From a virus, in UHGV virus genome UHGV-0072754: a stretch of 38,035 nucleotides of DNA, one strand, 5' to 3'. The translations under genes were made by a program, and so were the position numbers. Position 1 is the first letter of the stretch, and the number at the start of each line of letters is the position of its first letter. Below are positions 1 to 16,602 of the stretch, piece by piece. The notes under the pieces are model-generated. The model was not told the DNA's origin. It ran no database searches and saw only the letters and a program-made list of their open reading frames with translations.

Positions 1-148
1 CCAGCTTTTCCAGCTTGAGAATTTTTCTGTCTTTGGCTTCCAGCTCATCCAGCAGCGCCAGAACATCGCGAGTTTCCACGAACATATTCGGGTCGAAGTT
101 ATCGACAGCTTTAGCCGCGGCTGCTTTCAATTTGTCGATGTTGGTCAT
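1..148 (-). CDS. Hypothetical early protein, N-terminal 49 codons only (gene continues past window edge)
   Basis: ATG at 148-146 with AAGGAG 8 nt upstream; start overlaps stop of upstream gene (ATGA); translation MTNIDKLKAAAAKAVDNFDPNMFVETRDVLALLDELEAKDRKILKLEKL. Confidence 0.4.
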   Translation of the reverse strand, partial: MTNIDKLKAAAAKAVDNFDPNMFVETRDVLALLDELEAKDRKILKLEKL

Positions 149-375
149 TGGGCGGCTCCTTCTGCTTTCTTTTCGTCAACGCTCCAGGCTGTAGCCAGTG
201 CTCCAGTCACCTGCATAAACGAGTGTTTTACTTTCACCGAGAAGGTTTCTCCTGTTGGCGATACCGTTTCAATGGTGGTCAGTTCGCCGCCGCTATCAAA
301 ATCAGGGTAGAACTGCGTTACCAGGTTACTTTCGACAATCACCGATCCGTCTGGCGTGTGCATTTTAAGTTTCAT
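145..375 (-). CDS. Hypothetical early protein (76 aa)
   Basis: ORF in tightly coupled leftward operon; start overlaps stop of the 372..908 gene. Confidence 0.5.
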   Translation of the reverse strand: MKLKMHTPDGSVIVESNLVTQFYPDFDSGGELTTIETVSPTGETFSVKVKHSFMQVTGALATAWSVDEKKAEGAAQ

Positions 376-908
376 TGCTGCACTCCTTTGCGAAGCTCCT
401 TCAAAACAGCGCGCACAATTGCGTTACCGCGAGACACATATTCGAGGTGCCAAACGTCGCCGTCAGGCTCTGGCGGCTGCCCAGACCAAATAACGGTCTG
501 GAGCGTTGCATCATCAACGTTGTCGTAATCAGCCAACACAGTTGCAATTTGATAAGGTAATTGGCTACCTCTCAGAAACTCATCCACACCCTGCGCGCGC
601 ACTTCAGCCAGGAAAGCATCGGTTGCCGGGGTTTCTGGCTTGAAGTCGCTGGCACACCGCGGTTCGATGTCATCGCTTGTGTAAATAAAACAGTCATCTT
701 TGATGAATTTATTTAGCCCCGCATTCTCCGCAGCCAGCGCCGCAGCATCATTGCGAACCTTACGCAGTTCCAGAACAGCAACCTGAACTGCATAAGCGAA
801 CATAGCGGAAGGGCGGTTACAATCGGTCTCAGCATCGCGCTGCATGTTGACTGCAACAGTCATCAGTTCATCCAGTTGTTCGATGGTCATCGGTTTATTG
901 GCTTTCAT
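372..908 (-). CDS. Hypothetical early protein (179 aa; start at internal Met MKANKP of the track ORF)
   Basis: Track ORF 372..1049 trimmed to the ATG at 908, which overlaps the stop (895) of the upstream gene; no family recognised. Confidence 0.45.
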   Translation of the reverse strand: MKANKPMTIEQLDELMTVAVNMQRDAETDCNRPSAMFAYAVQVAVLELRKVRNDAAALAAENAGLNKFIKDDCFIYTSDDIEPRCASDFKPETPATDAFLAEVRAQGVDEFLRGSQLPYQIATVLADYDNVDDATLQTVIWSGQPPEPDGDVWHLEYVSRGNAIVRAVLKELRKGVQQ

Positions 909-1929
909 GATTCTTTTCCTGCTGCAGTTTGTGTTGCTTAACGAAGTGGGCCACAGCCTTTGACTGGCTAGCGGCAATGGTTTTGTCACCAATGTCCAGC
1001 CAAACGGTTTTTCCGCGATACAGTGAGGCCCGACCAATGTCTTTACCATCGAGCATCACATACAGAGTTCGTCCGCGAATTTCTGTGGTCGGGACTGGCT
1101 GTGACAAGCGATACGTTTCACGCGCTTCAGCAATGGCTTTGTGCTCGTCGATAATTGCCAGTGCTTCCGCCAGCGCCGCACCTTCAAGAGTGAAAACACC
1201 TTCATCACTGATTGCAGCCTGAGCCATAAGCTCAACGAAACGGCGCGCGTTCTTGATGCTCAGTTCGGGGGCGATAGAACTGCGGGTAACTTTCGATTTC
1301 CCTTGGGCAGCAGCGACTGCTTTGTCATGCTGGAGAACTTCACCCGCCTGTTCGCCATACTCGCGGACACGGTCCACAGCAACGTCAACAGATACTGCAC
1401 CGGATTTAACTTCCCTCTGCACGTCATGGTTTGCTGTGCTGAGGAGTAATAACTTCTCGACGGTGGCCACGGATTTATTAACCAGCTTTGCAATTTCGCT
1501 GGTGGTCTGGTTGAAGGCGTTATGCAGCTCCTGAATAACTGCAGCCTGCTCCATATCTGAGAGCGGCAGCTGGTTGTTACTGGTCATGATGCGCGCCAGA
1601 CGCTGAACATCGCTACCGTTGAACGGCATGATGTGGATGCGGTCAACTGGCTTGCCAGCTTCAGCGCAGCGCGCATAGCAGCGACGCCGACGGTGGCCTT
1701 CAACAACCCACACTCCACCTTCATCACGGGCGATAACCTCCAGCGGGGGAACGGAGCCACCGTTCATCAGGTAGTTGAACAAATCATCATCAGCCTGGCG
1801 GGTGCGTTCATCGTCTTCACGCTTGTTGAAACCTTCACGAACGTGGATATCTGAAAGAGCGATAAACATCCCGGTATCGGTGCGCTTAATTACACCGGCC
1901 TTGGTCATTTGCTTGAATGAGTTAGCCAT
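895..1929 (-). CDS. ParB-like nuclease domain protein (ParB/Srx N-terminal domain, 344 aa)
   Basis: N-terminal motif VVEGHRRRRCYARCAEAG typical of the ParB/sulfiredoxin fold (recalled signature, not searched); start overlaps stop of the 1929..2288 gene. Confidence 0.65.
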   Translation of the reverse strand: MANSFKQMTKAGVIKRTDTGMFIALSDIHVREGFNKREDDERTRQADDDLFNYLMNGGSVPPLEVIARDEGGVWVVEGHRRRRCYARCAEAGKPVDRIHIMPFNGSDVQRLARIMTSNNQLPLSDMEQAAVIQELHNAFNQTTSEIAKLVNKSVATVEKLLLLSTANHDVQREVKSGAVSVDVAVDRVREYGEQAGEVLQHDKAVAAAQGKSKVTRSSIAPELSIKNARRFVELMAQAAISDEGVFTLEGAALAEALAIIDEHKAIAEARETYRLSQPVPTTEIRGRTLYVMLDGKDIGRASLYRGKTVWLDIGDKTIAASQSKAVAHFVKQHKLQQEKNHESQ

Positions 1930-2288
1930 TAGAGAACAACCTCGTTATTCAGGGAAATGACGACACTAGGCAGTTCACGGAGTTCTCGCTGAGCTTCCAG
2001 CAGGTGCATGTTGGTAGGCGTTTTTGTGTAGCGCTCTTCGATACGGTCACACTCTTTGGCCCAGCTGGTGACATCCTCACGTAGCGTAGCGTTCTGCTCA
2101 GCCAGTTCCTTCCGCTGCGCCATCGCTTCACACAGCGCGACGCTGGTATAGTCAAGACGGTTAGCCAGTTCGTTAACCATCCAACCATAAGCGGCAGGAA
2201 GGAGAGGGGCGGCCTTGCGAGCTGCGTCAATAAGCTGCTCTCTGGTCATGCGTGGTTGTAACTCGGTGACGTTCTGTGTGTTCGTCAT
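1929..2288 (-). CDS. Hypothetical early protein (119 aa), first gene of leftward operon
   Basis: ATG at 2288-2286 preceded by GGAGAAAC; track ORF extends to 2432 only through a GTG with no SD. Confidence 0.55.
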   Translation of the reverse strand: MTNTQNVTELQPRMTREQLIDAARKAAPLLPAAYGWMVNELANRLDYTSVALCEAMAQRKELAEQNATLREDVTSWAKECDRIEERYTKTPTNMHLLEAQRELRELPSVVISLNNEVVL

Positions 2289-2884
2289 GGTTAGTTTCTC
2301 CGTGTTATAAGCGCTCTGCACAGCGCTGATTTTTGGTTGCACGAATCCCTCGCCTGATAGCGACAAAACATAAAGGGGGTTCGTTTTAGTAAGCACCCAA
2401 CCAGGGCACTTAGTGAAACGGGCGGCTGCCACCGCCAGTTAGCTTCTCCACAATTGGGAGCGCGTTCTCCTGAGTTGATCTAACGACTGAGGCCTCTCAA
2501 GGAACCGGCTGAACGCGCTTTCAGTTGTGAAAAGGGGCGGTCGACATTAAGGACATTCAAAACTGCCGACCGCCAAGACTACACACAGCATCTGGTACAG
2601 CTACGACGGTTTACACAACTGGAAGCGCACTCCGTTCGTTTACTTACCTGTCATCCACAACCGATAGTTGATGGAATGCGCTTTCATGTTATGTGCCGGG
2701 ATTCCACCGGCTCCCATCTGTTTTTTAAGCCACTCAGATATCGTCTGGGCTGTCACCTGATCGCCACGCTGGTGAAACGTCTCTGGCTGTCGTACACAAC
2801 TGGCTTGCACATTCCGGCTGCCCGCTGGATCGGGATACTGCCTAAGGAATCCCCAGACCGCTGCGGCACATGTGCCATATGCCG

Positions 2885-2945
2885 ATGACTAGAAGATAAT
2901 CATTAATTGCGAGTAACGCAAGTATTAAAATGCATATTACGCAAT
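2885..2945 (-). promoter_or_regulatory. Candidate leftward early promoter with operator-like palindromes (OL analogue)
   Basis: TTGCGAGTAACGCAA (2907-2921; perfect 5-bp inverted arms) and TACGCAA half-site at 2936-2942 share the motif of the cI-cro operators; on the minus strand TTGCGT-N17-TATCTT reads as -35/-10. Confidence 0.3.
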
Positions 2946-2953
2946 TTTGTGGA

Positions 2954-2985
2954 CAAAAAAAAACCTCACGTGAGGTCTTTTTTTC
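2954..2985. terminator. Bidirectional intrinsic terminator downstream of repressor gene
   Basis: A9 - perfect 14-bp palindrome ACCTCACGTGAGGT (2963-2976) - T-run. Confidence 0.7.
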
Positions 2986-2997
2986 CTGTAAATCTTG

Positions 2998-3693
2998 CTA
3001 GCCGTGCCGTTTAAAGGATTGCGACTGGCTTATTAAAACCTTTCCATAAATGTAGAATCTATGCTCGTTATCTTTTGTGATACTCCATTCCCGATATTTT
3101 GGATTGTCAGAGATAACAAGAAGCTGGTCAGGAATCATCTGGAGCCGTTTTACGTATATTTTTCCATCAAAACCAAACACATATATACCATCGCCATCAA
3201 ATTCATTTATGTTGACGTCAACAAAAATGAGGTCTCCTGGCTCGATGGTTGACGCCATACTGTCACCACGAACGTTAATAACTTTAACGCCAGAAGATGA
3301 CCTGCCTCCAAACATAGTTAATGCCTGATCATTGCTGTATTCAATAGCATGTATGACATCAATAACATCACTGCTCTGTATGTGTCCTGCTCCGGCGCTT
3401 GCGCTCACATCAAGTACCTCGACTCTATAAACATCACCAATGCTACGTGATGATGAATCACTTTCACTGTTTAAATATACAGTAGCCTCATTTTCTGCCG
3501 AGGTAAATAGGTCAGGGACTTTTACGCTTAAAGCGTGAGCAAGTCGGTTAAGTGTTTGTTCTGAAAACTGCTTTTGCTTGCCTGTTTCCAGGCGGGAAAT
3601 GTTGGCAGCATCAACCCCCACAGTTTCAGCAAGCTCTGCGATTTTCATGTTCTTCGCGAGGCGAAGTTGTCTGATGCGAGATCCTATATTCAT
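2998..3693 (-). CDS. CI-like prophage repressor, HTH N-domain plus S24 LexA-like autopeptidase C-domain (231 aa)
   Basis: HTH (IGSRIRQLRLAKNMKIAELAETVGVDAANISRLETGKQ); S24 motifs VRGDSMASTIEPGDLIFVD and GKIYVKRL (Ser/Lys dyad); AG in linker; start ATG 3693 with almost no SD (leaderless-type, as lambda cI from pRM). Confidence 0.8.
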   Translation of the reverse strand: MNIGSRIRQLRLAKNMKIAELAETVGVDAANISRLETGKQKQFSEQTLNRLAHALSVKVPDLFTSAENEATVYLNSESDSSSRSIGDVYRVEVLDVSASAGAGHIQSSDVIDVIHAIEYSNDQALTMFGGRSSSGVKVINVRGDSMASTIEPGDLIFVDVNINEFDGDGIYVFGFDGKIYVKRLQMIPDQLLVISDNPKYREWSITKDNEHRFYIYGKVLISQSQSFKRHG

Positions 3694-3790
3694 GCGTCCA
3701 TTACAAGTGTTTTTTGCGTGTCGTGCAAAGCAACTTGCGCAATTCGCCTGCATGGAATAACATGCGTAATACGCAAATAAAGGAGGCTTT
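3694..3790. promoter_or_regulatory. Immunity operator/promoter region (OR analogue) with divergent pRM-like and pR-like promoters
   Basis: Three operator-like sites: TTGCGTGTCGTGCAA (3714-3728), palindrome TTGCGCAA (3735-3742), perfect 13-bp palindrome TGCGTAATACGCA (3763-3775); plus strand TTGCGC-N17-TAACAT, minus strand TTGCAC-N17-TGTAAT. Confidence 0.6.
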
Positions 3791-4048
3791 ATGCAATCAC
3801 CGTTAAGAAAATTGCGTAAATCGCACGGTATGACCTTGTTGCATGTTGCAACAGGCGTACAGGTCGACCCGGCAACTTTAAGTCGCATTGAAAGATGTGA
3901 ACAGGTTCCATCAGTTGAACTGGCAGAACGTTTAGCCAAGTTCTTCAAAGGCGAGATCAGCGAATTACATATTTTATACCCGAGCCGCTACCAGGTTGCT
4001 GATGACGCATCGGGTAAAGGCAATCGTAATGCGAAAGCAGCCGTCTGA
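3791..4048 (+). CDS. Cro-like HTH regulator (85 aa)
   Basis: AAGGAGG SD then ATG; HTH-like LRKSHGMTLLHVATGVQVDPATLSRIER; divergent from repressor. Confidence 0.65.
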   Translation: MQSPLRKLRKSHGMTLLHVATGVQVDPATLSRIERCEQVPSVELAERLAKFFKGEISELHILYPSRYQVADDASGKGNRNAKAAV

Positions 4049-4070
4049 AAACTACCAAAGGAAAAACAAC

Positions 4071-4541
4071 ATGGTAGAGCCAAGCCTGAAAGAAGTAGTG
4101 AAAGCGATGTGCAAAGCGTACCCCGGAGGCCGTGAGGCTATGGCAGGTGCTCTTGGCATGTCAGTCACGCAGTTCAATAACAATCTGTACGAGAAGAACG
4201 GCTGCCGGTTCTTCGAGGTGAACGAGCTGGAAGCGATGGAGGACATTTCAAACACGTCTTTCCTGGCTGATTACTTCGCGCAACGTCGCGGCGCTCTCCT
4301 GGTGGAAGTTCCGCAACTTGAAGACCTCGATCGCGTTGACCTATTCACCCGTGCAATGAGAACTGCAGCAGCACGCGGTCAGGTTGATCAGATCATTCAG
4401 AAGGCGCTGGAAGATGGAGTGATTGAAGCGCATGAAGCGGAAGAAATTAACGAGTATCACCGCCGTCATCTGGCAGCGCGTGAAGAAGAAATCCGCGCGA
4501 TTGTCGCGCTGTTTAGCCGTAAGCAAAGCCAAAAAAAGTGA
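4071..4541 (+). CDS. cII-position regulatory protein (YdaT-like by position; family not verified)
   Basis: ATG 4071 with AAGGA SD; immediately downstream of cro-like gene; GC-rich hairpin GACGCCCG...CGGGCGTC follows the stop. Confidence 0.45.
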   Translation: MVEPSLKEVVKAMCKAYPGGREAMAGALGMSVTQFNNNLYEKNGCRFFEVNELEAMEDISNTSFLADYFAQRRGALLVEVPQLEDLDRVDLFTRAMRTAAARGQVDQIIQKALEDGVIEAHEAEEINEYHRRHLAAREEEIRAIVALFSRKQSQKK

Positions 4542-4602
4542 CGCCCGCGAGTGTGCAGCTCCGGGCGTCTTGGCGTGTCGTATTCAGTGGAGAAACTAAC
4601 GC

Positions 4603-4941
4603 ATGAACAGTTTAAACCGATTGAGACCAGCGAAGCAATTCAGATGCCTTCCGCTGGTGGGAAAAGATTCCCCGTTCGGCTATGTGGAGAGATTAAACGA
4701 CCAGGCTGATACGAACAACTACCAGCCTGAGAACGCGATGGTAGAGGCTTTTGCTCAGATGAACGAGAAGGGGCGCGAGGAATGGCTGAAGTTAACCGGC
4801 GATTCAAAGACCACTACGGCGTCCCGGTCCGTGTCATCAGATGGGAGCCACAGACCCGACGCGTTATATACCTTCGCGAAGGGTACGATCATGAGTGCTT
4901 CAGCCCTCTTGAGCAATTCCAGCGTAAATTTACAGAGTTAA
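4603..4941 (+). CDS. Hypothetical protein (112 aa); C-terminal half is overlapped by a better-looking ORF in the -1 frame (4782..4994)
   Basis: Strong SD GGAGAAAC before ATG 4603; Ser/Thr-rich low-complexity C-terminus while the overlapping 4782..4994 frame gives a more protein-like sequence (possible frameshift). Confidence 0.35.
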   Translation: MNSLNRLRPAKQFRCLPLVGKDSPFGYVERLNDQADTNNYQPENAMVEAFAQMNEKGREEWLKLTGDSKTTTASRSVSSDGSHRPDALYTFAKGTIMSASALLSNSSVNLQS

Positions 4942-4950
4942 AGGACGACC

Positions 4951-5877
4951 ATGAGCCTGTTGATGCCATCCCGGCCGATAGTGATAAACCCTGACCTTGC
5001 ATACAGCATTGGCCTGAACGAGGCCATTGCGTTGCAGCAGGTTAACTACTGGCTTAAAGAAACCACCTCCGGACTGGAGCGTGACGGCGTGCGCTGGATT
5101 TACAACACCAACGAGCAGTGGCTGGAGCAGTTCCCGTTCTGGTCTGAGTCTACGCTGAAGCGCACATTCACCCGCCTGAAGCAGCTCGGCGTGCTCAAAG
5201 TTGAGCAGCTGAACAAGTCTCAGCGCGACATGACGAACTACTACACGATCAACTACGAAAGCGAGCTTTTAGATGAGCTCAAAGTGACCAAATCGAAGAG
5301 TTCAAAATGCACTCTTCCATCAGGTCAAAATGAACCGATGGAAGAGGTCAAAGTGGAACGCTCCATCGGTTCAAAACGAACCGCTCTCATCAGGTCAAAT
5401 TGCACTGATGTTCTTACAGAGAATACAACAGAGAATACTACAGATATTAAAAACCCTATTTGTCCGGTTGCGCCGCAACCAGACGGTGATGTGTTGATCA
5501 CCGATCAGGCTAAACAGGTTTTAACCCATCTGAACCAGGTGACCAGTTCGCGTTATCAGGTTTCAACAACCTCGCTGCAAAATATTCGTGCCCGAATCGG
5601 GGAGGGCTACACCGTTGAAGAATTGTCGCTGGTGGTGGACTACTGCAACGCCAAGTGGAGCGAAGACCTGACGATGGCGACCTACCTTCGACCACAGACG
5701 CTTTTCCAGCCGTCCAAGTTCCCTGGCTACCTGAAGTCAGCGAACAGTTGGGCCAAAGCTGGGCGACCTCCTCGCGTAAACGGAGAGTGGGCCCGAGAGG
5801 ATGGGGTTTTCCGCTCCAGTTTCCAGAACACTGACTACAGCAAAGTCCCGGCAGGCTTCAGAGGAGCGAACTCATGA
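4951..5877 (+). CDS. Replication initiator, lambda O-like (308 aa)
   Basis: AAGGA SD; position after the cII-like gene; iteron array lies inside the linker-coding region as in lambda O; conserved-looking C-terminal domain. Confidence 0.7.
   Translation: MSLLMPSRPIVINPDLAYSIGLNEAIALQQVNYWLKETTSGLERDGVRWIYNTNEQWLEQFPFWSESTLKRTFTRLKQLGVLKVEQLNKSQRDMTNYYTINYESELLDELKVTKSKSSKCTLPSGQNEPMEEVKVERSIGSKRTALIRSNCTDVLTENTTENTTDIKNPICPVAPQPDGDVLITDQAKQVLTHLNQVTSSRYQVSTTSLQNIRARIGEGYTVEELSLVVDYCNAKWSEDLTMATYLRPQTLFQPSKFPGYLKSANSWAKAGRPPRVNGEWAREDGVFRSSFQNTDYSKVPAGFRGANS
5297..5462. repeat. Candidate replication origin: 4-5 iterons plus adjacent AT-rich segment inside the O-like gene
   Basis: Repeats of ~GGT(T)CAAAAYGMAC with inverted symmetry (CATCAGGTCAAAATGAACCGATG 5319-5341, GGTTCAAAACGAACC 5368-5382, CATCAGGTCAAATTGCACTGATG 5388-5410) followed by cagagaatacaacagagaatactacagatattaaaaa. 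Confidence 0.55.
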
Positions 5878-10195: not shown

Positions 10196-10435
10196 AGGGC
10201 TGCCTCCGGGTGGCCTTTTTTGTTTCCCCTCGTTCTGAGAGGACTCATGGCGATGATGTATTGACCGCTAGAATGGATTAGTCGTAACTTATTATTGTGG
10301 TGAATCCTTTCTAAGCGAAAGGGCGTTCCAGTCAACTGCTATCTGCAGGTATGCGCGCGGCTTTGCTGACTTGGGTAGAGTCACCGGGAGGCACCCGGCA
10401 CCATGACAATAACAATACAGTTTCAAATTCCTTGA

Positions 10436-10467
10436 GAGCCTGCCGTAAAAAGCAGGCCTTTTTTTAT
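10436..10467 (+). terminator. Intrinsic terminator in late leader
   Basis: GCCTGC-cgtaaaaa-GCAGGC followed by CTTTTTTTAT. Confidence 0.65.
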
Positions 10468-10618
10468 GAATTTGCAAACTGCTGCTACGCTTGAAATGTG
10501 TGTTGAAGGTAATTGCCTGATGGTTCTCCTGAACCGTTGTGAACCAGCCCGATACTGTCTCACTCAGGTCAGTTAGCAAGACTCACGACTACCTACCTTA
10601 CTTACTAATAGTCACTCA

Positions 10619-16217: not shown

Positions 16218-16420
16218 TGAAAGACCTCAGCATTGAATACCGCGATGGAAAATTCGTTCGCCTGGTGATTGATGGCGTGGAGATGAAGAACGTGACATCC
16301 ATTCAGTTCTCGCACGCTGTAGGGCAGGAGGTGCCGACAGTGACCGTCTCAGGGCATGTTGTCTCCGGGCGTGTGAAAGGCACTCAGAAACTCGAACAGG
16401 TAGACAAACATTCGGCATAG
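16217..16420 (+). CDS. Hypothetical small protein (67 aa)
   Basis: TAATG overlap with the HNH gene. Confidence 0.4.
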   Translation: MKDLSIEYRDGKFVRLVIDGVEMKNVTSIQFSHAVGQEVPTVTVSGHVVSGRVKGTQKLEQVDKHSA

Positions 16421-16602
16421 CGCGGCGGCGGCAAGTCGATTACCAATTATGTGAAATCATTTCAAATGCAACGATATCAAATGAGAATGAATCGCATCAG
16501 GGCAGGGGGGGATCAAATCTTCAAAACCTTTGCCCCAAATGACCGCCGCCAAAGTTTGATTTTAACGCTAACCCGATTTTTTTAGTTTTAAGGTGTTGAC
16601 AT
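16421..16602. other. Candidate cos / terminase recognition region
   Basis: Noncoding gap between HNH and TerS with GC-rich inverted elements (GCGCGGCGGCGGC at 16420-16432 and GACCGCCGCC at 16540-16549) and a G-run (CAGGGCAGGGGGGG). Confidence 0.25.

Follow-up and report, generated by a model that had tools for sequence, protein, structure and literature searches.

The 38,035-nucleotide (nt) virus genome UHGV-0072754, referred to below in its whole length as the window, is that of a mosaic HK97/mEp390-like temperate phage of Enterobacteriaceae. Its minus strand carries a structured RNA, here termed X, in the leader at 2289-2953, between the cI-like repressor gene and the first early-left gene. 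X is a real structured RNA with five helices and a pseudoknot backed by compensatory changes, and it is one of an uncatalogued family with a wide distribution among temperate phages of Enterobacteriaceae. The leader is non-coding and is not spacer. That a minus-strand array of non-coding RNAs lies directly downstream of the repressor operators is very probable. The fuller reading, in which this array is headed by X, is transcribed from a leftward promoter (PL) and has in X a cis-acting element, is offered tentatively and with somewhat less than even confidence. An earlier note on this DNA had described the leader as poor in open reading frames (ORFs) and rich in hairpins, and had suggested that it encodes an antitermination RNA, small peptides or a small RNA (sRNA) rather than a protein. 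X proved more informative than the hairpins named there and had not been mentioned.

The position and size of X are as follows.

2731-2886, minus strand: X RNA, 156 nt, member of an uncatalogued structured-RNA family (covariance model R1; pair counts in 44 sequences).

The structure of X emerged from comparative analysis only; folding of the single sequence 2740-2892 gave z=-0.46. Alignment of the segment with its relatives showed insertions and deletions whose lengths were not multiples of three, together with paired substitutions. An alignment of 44 sequences, less than 95% identical to each other, was analyzed by mutual information and by inspection, and the covariance model R1 (157 modelled positions) was built from it. 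When the window was searched with R1 and the filters were off, a single copy was found at 2731-2886 on the minus strand (131.4 bits, E=9e-37, model positions 1-157). A second match at 2025-2139 (12 bits) was judged to be due to chance; it lies inside the 119-amino-acid gene described below and is without helix P2. The earlier note had proposed a covariance-model search as a check. Rfam yielded nothing for the leader beyond terminator-like noise; the purpose-built R1 defined a structured family there.

As evident from the cmsearch alignment, helices P1, P2, P3x and P4 and the P4-loop pseudoknot are all paired in the window copy. P1 is a 9-bp hairpin with a GCA triloop (2884-2876 with 2872-2864). 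P2 (2860-2854 with 2824-2815, plus an inner hairpin) forms in the family a long, bent hairpin whose variable tip retains a CCUU motif in its loop. The unpaired junction strand GGAAUGUGCAAG follows at 2815-2804. P3x (2804-2802 with 2765-2763) closes a junction that holds a variable hairpin and P4, the latter having 4 bp (2780-2777 with 2769-2766) and the loop UUCACCA (YUCACCA in the family). The CACC of this loop (2774-2771) pairs with a downstream GGUG (2757-2754) to form the pseudoknot. P5 is in the family a hairpin CCUCG-GAAGAGA-CGAGG; in the window, as in at least nine other loci, its segment has been swapped for a tRNA-like remnant. The segments GCACAU of P1 and AUGUGC of the junction are complementary to each other.

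In the 44 sequences, 94.3% of the cells were paired, compared with 31-43% when the partners were slid, and 16 pairs had changes on both sides. The covariation score was 0.259 as against 0.126 for shuffles, and 0.259 was reached by none of 500 shuffles, a comparison that calls for caution in that the sequences are related to each other. One clade had switched a C-G pair of the pseudoknot to A-U.

Single copies of X were also detected by R1 in the whole mEp390 genome and in phage P1 (131.5 bits), but none in the HK022 immunity region, the Qin dicB region of Escherichia coli K-12 or the CPS-53 prophage. X was further present in phages P7 and D6, in Stx2 phages and in mEp460. Positions 2754-2884 have unannotated counterparts, 75-91% identical, in mEp390 and the epsilon15-like phages of Salmonella, Enterobacter and Klebsiella. 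An exact 16-mer of X occurred in at least 120 viral contigs, with about 100 distinct sequences among the matches listed. A 19-mer was found in 24 stretches of species-representative genomes, all of Enterobacteriaceae except two contigs of metagenome-assembled genomes labelled Bacillota/Oscillospiraceae, which were probably mis-binned. Blastn with one clade as query placed X in 1833 of 5426 complete E. coli genomes, about one third; 554 of the places in E. coli were on plasmids, and the two inspected were P1-like. No match to Rfam 15 was obtained for any copy searched (window, leader and eight related loci), at gathering or at permissive thresholds; the elements Y and T1 described below likewise matched no Rfam family in these searches. 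X is unannotated in the 535-feature record of phage P1. A description of X was not found in Rfam 15 or by full-text literature searches, and an earlier report outside that coverage is possible.

The leader stands out by its coding content as well. ORFs of at least 75 amino acids, counted on both strands, cover 94.5% of the window and leave 2433-2997 (565 bp) as the longest gap, in agreement with the dense packing that the earlier note had described around an ORF-poor leader. The runner-up among the ORF-free stretches, at 16303-16602, measures 300 bp.

At its upstream end, the leader is bounded by these features.

2998-3684, minus strand: cI-like repressor gene, 228 amino acids, helix-turn-helix (HTH) and S24 peptidase (ORF list; Pfam Peptidase_S24, E=8e-21; HTH_3, E=5e-10).
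2946-2985, no strand assigned: bidirectional intrinsic terminator consisting of an A-run, the hairpin ACCTCACGTGAGGT at 2963-2976 and a T-run, which ends the repressor transcript (sequence, terminator scan).
2907-2944, no strand assigned: two operators of the left-operator (OL) type, TTGCGAGTAACGCAA at 2907-2921 and ATGCATATTACGCAA at 2930-2944 (pattern search).
2893-2921, minus strand: putative PL promoter with -35 TTGCGT (2921-2916, within the operator), a 17-nt spacer and -10 TATCTT (2898-2893), read from the sequence.

A Pfam search showed that the repressor gene faces cro-like and CII-like genes. It is separated from the operators by the terminator hairpin, which the earlier note had missed; the Rfam scan of the leader gave only weak STnc370-like terminator noise at 2928-3011. 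The operator-like palindromes reported in the earlier note are present, one being a perfect TTGCG-N5-CGCAA and the other a copy with two mismatches. In a pattern search of the 38 kb, sites with no or one mismatch were found only at 2907, 3714, 3762 and 3812, all in the immunity region, and sites with two mismatches occurred at chance level across the window. Half-sites recur between the cI-like and cro-like genes. Because the other close matches in the 38 kb lie only in or beside the cI-cro intergenic region, the palindromes were taken to be operators. The predicted PL transcript would start near 2886, and the same TGATTATCTT box precedes X in the related loci L013, L043 and L080.

X occupied a comparable place in many other genomes. 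In prophages with at least three unrelated repressor types it was located downstream of the repressor gene, at the position expected for the leftward promoter, and in a few of these repressor-linked loci operator-flanked promoters could be read directly in the sequence. This group includes mEp460, phage cdtI, Stx2a and Stx2c phages and the UTI89 prophage, in which the order is repressor, X, yfdP/Q/R. No annotated N gene was present in any of these (Stx2a_1447 in the case of Stx2a) or in mEp390. In the repressor-linked leaders, X is separated from the first ORF by hairpin terminators; a home-made terminator finder was too permissive (149 sense and 159 antisense matches), and no statistics were drawn from it. 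In epsilon15-like phages, X is placed between the genes for terminase and portal, on the strand opposite to them, in the order promoter, X, Y hairpin (see below), tRNA-Arg(UCU), two terminators and accessory gene; since the Shine-Dalgarno (SD) sequence of the downstream gene is within about 15 nt of the last U-tract, there is no room for a further promoter. Genes downstream of X were co-oriented with it 59:1, and upstream genes were mostly divergent.

Orthologues of the 119-amino-acid gene come after X in L013, L043, L068, L080 and L088. L043, L080 and L088 have an insertion between X and the early genes, an antisense gene for a membrane protein, and a canonical rrn-type boxA (GCUCUUUAA; UGCUCUUUAACAA in L088) is found about 35 nt after X at the insertion junction. 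The idea that boxA is a general partner of X was rejected; the canonical form stands behind X in only 3 of 95 distinct loci, and a relaxed pattern was confounded by the Y stem.

From X to the first protein gene, the window contains the following elements.

2693-2752, minus strand: tRNA-like remnant R, with a stem AUCUG/CAGAU around a 14-nt loop and a T-arm-like hairpin GCCGG-UGGAAUC-CCGGC at 2711-2695 (similarity searches).
2612-2694, minus strand: Y1, a long imperfect hairpin, ACAUAAC.AUGAAAGCGCAUUCC ... GGAGUGCGCUUCCAGUUGUGU (-28.7 kcal/mol, z=-3.5, 0 of 200 shuffles as good; inverted repeat I3).
2525-2596, minus strand: T1, DicF-like sRNA/terminator with 5' arm GCUGUGUGUAGUCUU, hairpin at 2574-2536 and tail CCUUUUCA, of four U only (model R2, alignment to DicF).
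2446-2530, minus strand: Y2, a second long hairpin, GAAAGCGCGUUC ... GAACGCGCUCCCAAUUGUGG (-28.6 kcal/mol, z=-2.2; repeats D1, I1 and I2).
2412-2440, minus strand: T2, a short GC hairpin (2436-2421) followed by CGUUUCAC (-12.4 kcal/mol, z=-2.0; comparison with T1 of SPN1S-type loci).
2286-2327, minus strand: translation start region of the 119-amino-acid gene, with AGCGCT hairpin (2327-2310), GGAG (2301-2298) and ATG (2288-2286), read from the sequence.
1929-2288, minus strand: first early-left protein gene, 119 amino acids, no Pfam family (ORF list, Pfam search).

The leader proved mosaic itself in similarity searches. Over 52 nt, remnant R, which stands in for helix P5 of X, shares 100% of its sequence with Klebsiella phage SopranoGao; its identity to N4-like phages, where it occurs among tRNA-like genes, is about 89%. 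Its fold was no better than those of shuffles, and neither ARAGORN (tRNA and transfer-messenger RNA, tmRNA) nor Rfam (tRNA) detected such a gene in the window. Relatives carry real tRNA-Arg or tRNA-Ile2 genes at corresponding places. Y1 and Y2 are paralogous, and in relatives the Y module directly precedes a tRNA gene; the leader of the window looks like a version from which the tRNA has been lost. A view of the Y modules as CCA-ending tRNA-like minihelices was dropped, the CCA not being conserved in relatives.

Some further observations were made on these modules and their tRNA-like neighbors. The 3' strand of the Y hairpin reads GUGCUCUUUCCGUUGUG in L023, L007, L129 and others and contains the rrn boxA core UGCUCUUU; that of the window reads UGCGCUUCC. 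In the prophage of E. coli E2348/69 (L128, 3297-3409), a 113-nt pseudogenic tRNA-Gly annotated in RefSeq follows directly after X and Y; its acceptor, D and T arms are normal, and about 40 nt are inserted in the anticodon/variable region. In the N4-like Escherichia phage PBM-3 (L002, 654-928, minus strand), an annotated 80-nt tRNA-Cys looks like part of a tmRNA-like gene. That stretch gave a weak permuted-tmRNA match (E=0.0026), a tag-like frame ANDDVVLMAA* and a tmRNA 3'-end match; ARAGORN called nothing there.

T1 contains the hairpin GGCGGTCG...CGACCGCC at 2536-2573. All the hairpins named in the earlier note are present in the leader, but only this one clearly exceeded chance (-20.6 kcal/mol, z=-4.7, 0 of 200 shuffles as good). 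The hairpin GGCGGCTGCCACCGCC at 2421-2436 (-12.4 kcal/mol, z=-2.0) forms the stem of T2, and the AGCGCT...AGCGCT hairpin at 2310-2327, 21 nt before the ATG at 2288 (-9.6 kcal/mol, z=-1.9), was not significant. On the plus strand (2310-2337), with GATTTTTGG behind it, the latter has the score of an intrinsic terminator that would act on rightward, antisense transcription.

T1 is a member of a hairpin-terminator family with a conserved 5' arm. The model R2 was built from 16 T1-type elements, with DicF left out, and scored T1 of the window at 75.8 bits. It matched dicF of K-12 end to end (positions 1-72) with 25.2 bits and E=0.003, the latter by a rough calibration. T1 aligned with all 53 nt of DicF, the common parts being UUGGCGGU, CAGUUUU and CCGCCC-UUUU, and the pairwise score of 36 compared with 20.2 +/- 3.6 for shuffles (maximum 35 in 1000). 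The Rfam DicF model (RF00039, gathering threshold 48 bits) gave no match in 2400-2700 at E up to 10; in the same model the control, dicF of K-12, scored 76.7 bits and one T1 relative 22 bits. Predicted pairing of T1 with the E. coli ftsZ start was no better than that of shuffles, in a test that also fails to separate real DicF. Because the Rfam model misses T1 and ftsZ pairing was not demonstrated, T1 is called DicF-like and not a DicF member. The alignments provide weak but consistent indications that T1 is a distant DicF homologue, and DicF-type sRNAs appear to be commoner in prophage leaders than Rfam detects. In the whole window, Rfam at gathering thresholds returned only the sRNA STnc100 at 10268-10469 on the plus strand (58.4 vs 47 bits); weaker STnc100 matches were seen immediately behind dicF of E. 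coli K-12 and within the ban operon of phage P1.

T2 resembles a copy of the T1 stem (UGGCGGUGGCAG/CCGCC) that has lost its loop, and it would be a weak terminator at best. The 119-amino-acid gene beyond it is followed by a ParB-like gene. A GTG-started ORF of 167 amino acids (1929-2432) lengthens the 119-amino-acid gene into the leader and qualifies the ORF-poor character noted above; the mEp390 orthologue is annotated in this long form. The ATG at 2288 was taken as the start because GGAG stands 9 nt upstream of it and the GTG is buried in a hairpin stem.

From this arrangement, a course of events can be proposed. Once the repressor leaves OL, PL would transcribe the whole array. Nascent X would fold at the 5' end and act on the elongation complex that made it, helping it across about 450 nt of untranslated, terminator-containing RNA, the job of nutL and N in lambda and of putL in HK022. 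Some polymerases would stop at T1 with its short U-tract and yield a DicF-like 3' end, comparable to that of dicF in the Qin dicB operon, and the remaining ones would continue into the 119-amino-acid and ParB-like genes, which seem to have no promoter of their own. RNA-based antitermination by X is put forward as a hypothesis, according to which X would modify E. coli RNA polymerase, either by itself or together with Nus factors of the host. A cis role is favored because X stands at about +1 of the putative PL here and is the first element after repressor-controlled promoters in phages without an annotated N gene, because the downstream genes are so consistently co-oriented, and because terminators and long untranslated stretches follow X. 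It is also favored because a canonical boxA lies right behind X in the three relatives with the antisense insertion and because the mEp phage collection was reported to be Nus-dependent (PMC11893012). Even so, we regard an action of X in cis on the early-left transcription unit as doubtful, and it is rather unlikely that X represents a second, structurally unrelated class of antitermination or anti-Rho RNA after HK022 put.

Several observations weigh against such a role. The putative PL matches the promoter consensus at 7 of 12 positions and fails a consensus scan. X of the window is without P5, four non-standard pairs occupying the stem, and the invariance of the junction strand is partly an ascertainment artefact because the family was collected with an exact 16-mer. 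In phage P1, X is located between trnI and ban, 2.3 kb from the C1-controlled Pban; a dicF-like region and three tRNA genes come before it, ban begins only about 95 nt behind it, and no terminator was seen between it and the ban start. Directly after X in phage P1 (NC_005856, about 71200-71300; L009) stands UUUUCUGGUGAUGAC, which is close to the DicF 5' end UUUCUGGUGACG; then comes an upstream ORF of 14 codons, the stop of which overlaps with the start of ban (UAAUG). In 39 of 121 loci, X has a tRNA gene beside it on the same strand, an arrangement that is typical of processed stable RNAs. An early operon with a DicF-type terminator but without X is found both in Qin (dicB) and in prophage L129; therefore, passage of T1 does not require X. 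To put, X shows no likeness in sequence or structure, as judged by comparison with the put sequences and by the negative R1 search, and it occurs once per genome, with no copy in the rightward operon, unlike nut and unlike put, which is present twice.

Ranked about equal to the cis role, and thus likewise doubtful, is the explanation that X is a stable trans-acting early RNA, cut by RNase P, E or III from the PL transcript or from between tRNAs. Its binding partner would be a conserved component of the host, towards which it might serve as decoy, sponge or anti-SD-type regulator, and the leader would be an operon of RNA genes. The tRNA neighbors speak for it: a same-strand tRNA-Arg(UCU) begins 50-110 nt after X in 23 loci, and a tRNA-Ile2/Met(CAU) ends about 15 nt before X in 16 loci, phage P1 included. 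X also accompanies other RNA genes (the DicF-like T1 here, the dicF-like region and tRNAs in phage P1), and it occurs in unrelated phage types and genome positions in the manner of a self-contained gene. That X is conserved in phages whose proteins are unrelated suggests a partner in the host. The CCUU motif of the inner P2 loop recurs in the loop of T1, and T1 is kept in operons without X. However, neither a terminator nor a defined 3' end was found directly behind X, which runs straight into mRNA in L068 and phage P1, and its place, nearly always first after a repressor-controlled promoter, would be needless for a gene acting in trans.

The remaining explanations ranked lower. X might be a module of RNA stability or processing whose compact 5' fold protects the early mRNA or directs cleavage of a precursor. 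It is found either at the transcript start (window, L013, L043, L080) or about 15 nt past the 3' end of a tRNA, as in the P1 type, and therefore the downstream RNA would begin with X in either case; moreover, it always lies ahead of co-oriented genes. This explanation is nevertheless improbable. Known 5' stabilizers are simple hairpins, whereas the pseudoknot of X, its many unpaired bases that are conserved and its size of about 157 modelled positions exceed what protection needs, and 40-100 nt precede X in many loci. A riboswitch-like sensor tying early-left expression to a host metabolite or signal is less probable still. A multi-helix junction with a pseudoknot and conserved junction nucleotides, located in a 5' leader upstream of terminators, would suit such a sensor, and the GCACAU/AUGUGC complementarity would permit alternative folds. 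No expression platform adjoins X, though; its distance to a terminator or start ranges from 35 to more than 600 nt with variable content, it occurs between tRNA genes, and the function of the downstream genes is inconsistent.

Least credible of all, and already largely refuted, is a leader encoding small proteins: ORFs of 56 (2640-2810, minus strand), 41 and 70 (plus strand) amino acids exist in it, and homologous stretches are annotated as hypothetical proteins in SopranoGao, mEp390 (gp36) and P1-like plasmids, but both longer ORFs have in-frame stops in most close relatives and frameshifts in other clades, the indels are not multiples of three in length, the variation tracks base-pairing and not codons, and Pfam matches neither. 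The conserved protein gene that the earlier note had named as contrary evidence was thus looked for, and the small ORFs of the leader are neither conserved nor matched in Pfam. With regard to its proposal of RNA rather than protein, the structured X and the DicF-like T1 bear out an RNA content, and the small peptides of less than 60 amino acids are not supported. Hypothetical-protein ORFs over X or its flanks were recorded in mEp390 (gp36), SopranoGao (SopranoGao_1), a P1-like plasmid (DL545_RS27270) and mEp460 (gp36/gp37); the start of mEp390 gp36 falls at the conserved AAUGUGC of X, and these annotations are probably artefacts.

To our knowledge, RNA-only control of phage transcription elongation rests on one example, HK022 put, and we know of no explanation for early-left expression in lambdoid phages without an annotated N (SfV-like phages, mEp390/mEp460, several Stx2 phages). 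X, a covariation-backed RNA of 157 positions at the nutL position of such phages, is a concrete candidate for this control. If the antitermination hypothesis is true, X would serve lambdoid early operons without an annotated N, including those of Stx2 phages, as well as the P1 ban operon and epsilon15-type cassettes. Whether X acts in cis or in trans, a function would be assigned to a phage RNA that is common and strongly conserved.

Among known systems, lambda nutL shares its position with X, the first element after PL. The earlier note had placed the leader where lambda has nutL and N, and this holds for its position; an N-like gene, boxA or boxB was not found there. A boxA (YGCUCUUWA, at most one mismatch) was absent from 2289-2900 on the minus strand and from 3700-5000 on the plus strand, apart from a chance-like site inside a gene, and no 5-bp hairpin with a GNRA-like loop was present in the leader. 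No N-like family or Arg-rich N terminus was seen in the genes checked (window 145-4941), among which a small divergent N is easily missed. The lambda nutR boxB loop is GAAGA. In most of the X family, P5 is a comparable 5-bp stem with the purine loop GAAGAGA; the window copy is without it. A further likeness to lambda nut and to rrn leaders (boxB-boxA-boxC) is the canonical boxA just behind X in three relatives; the window has none. In the PL-like leaders of L039 (7130-8030) and L075 (4785-5690), at least seven boxB-like hairpins CCGG-GAAAGA-CCGG were observed before and after X, and mEp390 has one such hairpin.

HK022 putL and putR are polymerase-utilisation RNAs (PMC9378689). Like putL, X is a folded RNA at the start of the PL transcript, upstream of terminators, in a lambdoid phage in which no N was annotated or found, and its conservation across phages with differing proteins fits a host partner such as RNA polymerase. 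The put RNAs comprise about 70 nt and two stems, compared with the 157 modelled positions, five helices and pseudoknot of X, which by contrast also occurs far from promoters, as in phage P1, and between tRNA genes. Rfam holds no put model. X thus resembles putL and nutL in position only and departs from put and nut in every feature that could be tested.

In phages P4 and P1, CI RNA and c4 antisense RNA are small structured RNAs that are processed from the leader of an early operon and control the same operon. Rfam C4 (RF01695) had no match in the leader of the window and was found elsewhere in a related prophage; the repeat analysis of the leader revealed no repeated targets of the P4 CI or c4 type complementary to an X loop. 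Parallels are also provided by two other operons. The leader of the P1 ban operon (Pban/Op72, dicF-like region, trnA, trnT, tci genes, trnI, ban) lies in an early operon controlled by the C1 repressor and includes a genuine X-family RNA; there the dicF-like region and tRNAs come first and X last, whereas X is first in the window. The Qin dicB operon is repressor-controlled and carries dicF upstream of dicB; processing data for dicF were reportedly obtained by Faubladier et al. in 1990. T1 differs from DicF in its loop sequence and in its U-tract of only four U, but it is likewise a hairpin terminator in a repressor-controlled early operon upstream of protein genes. As a whole, the array resembles the RNA-rich leaders of the P1 ban and Qin dicB operons.

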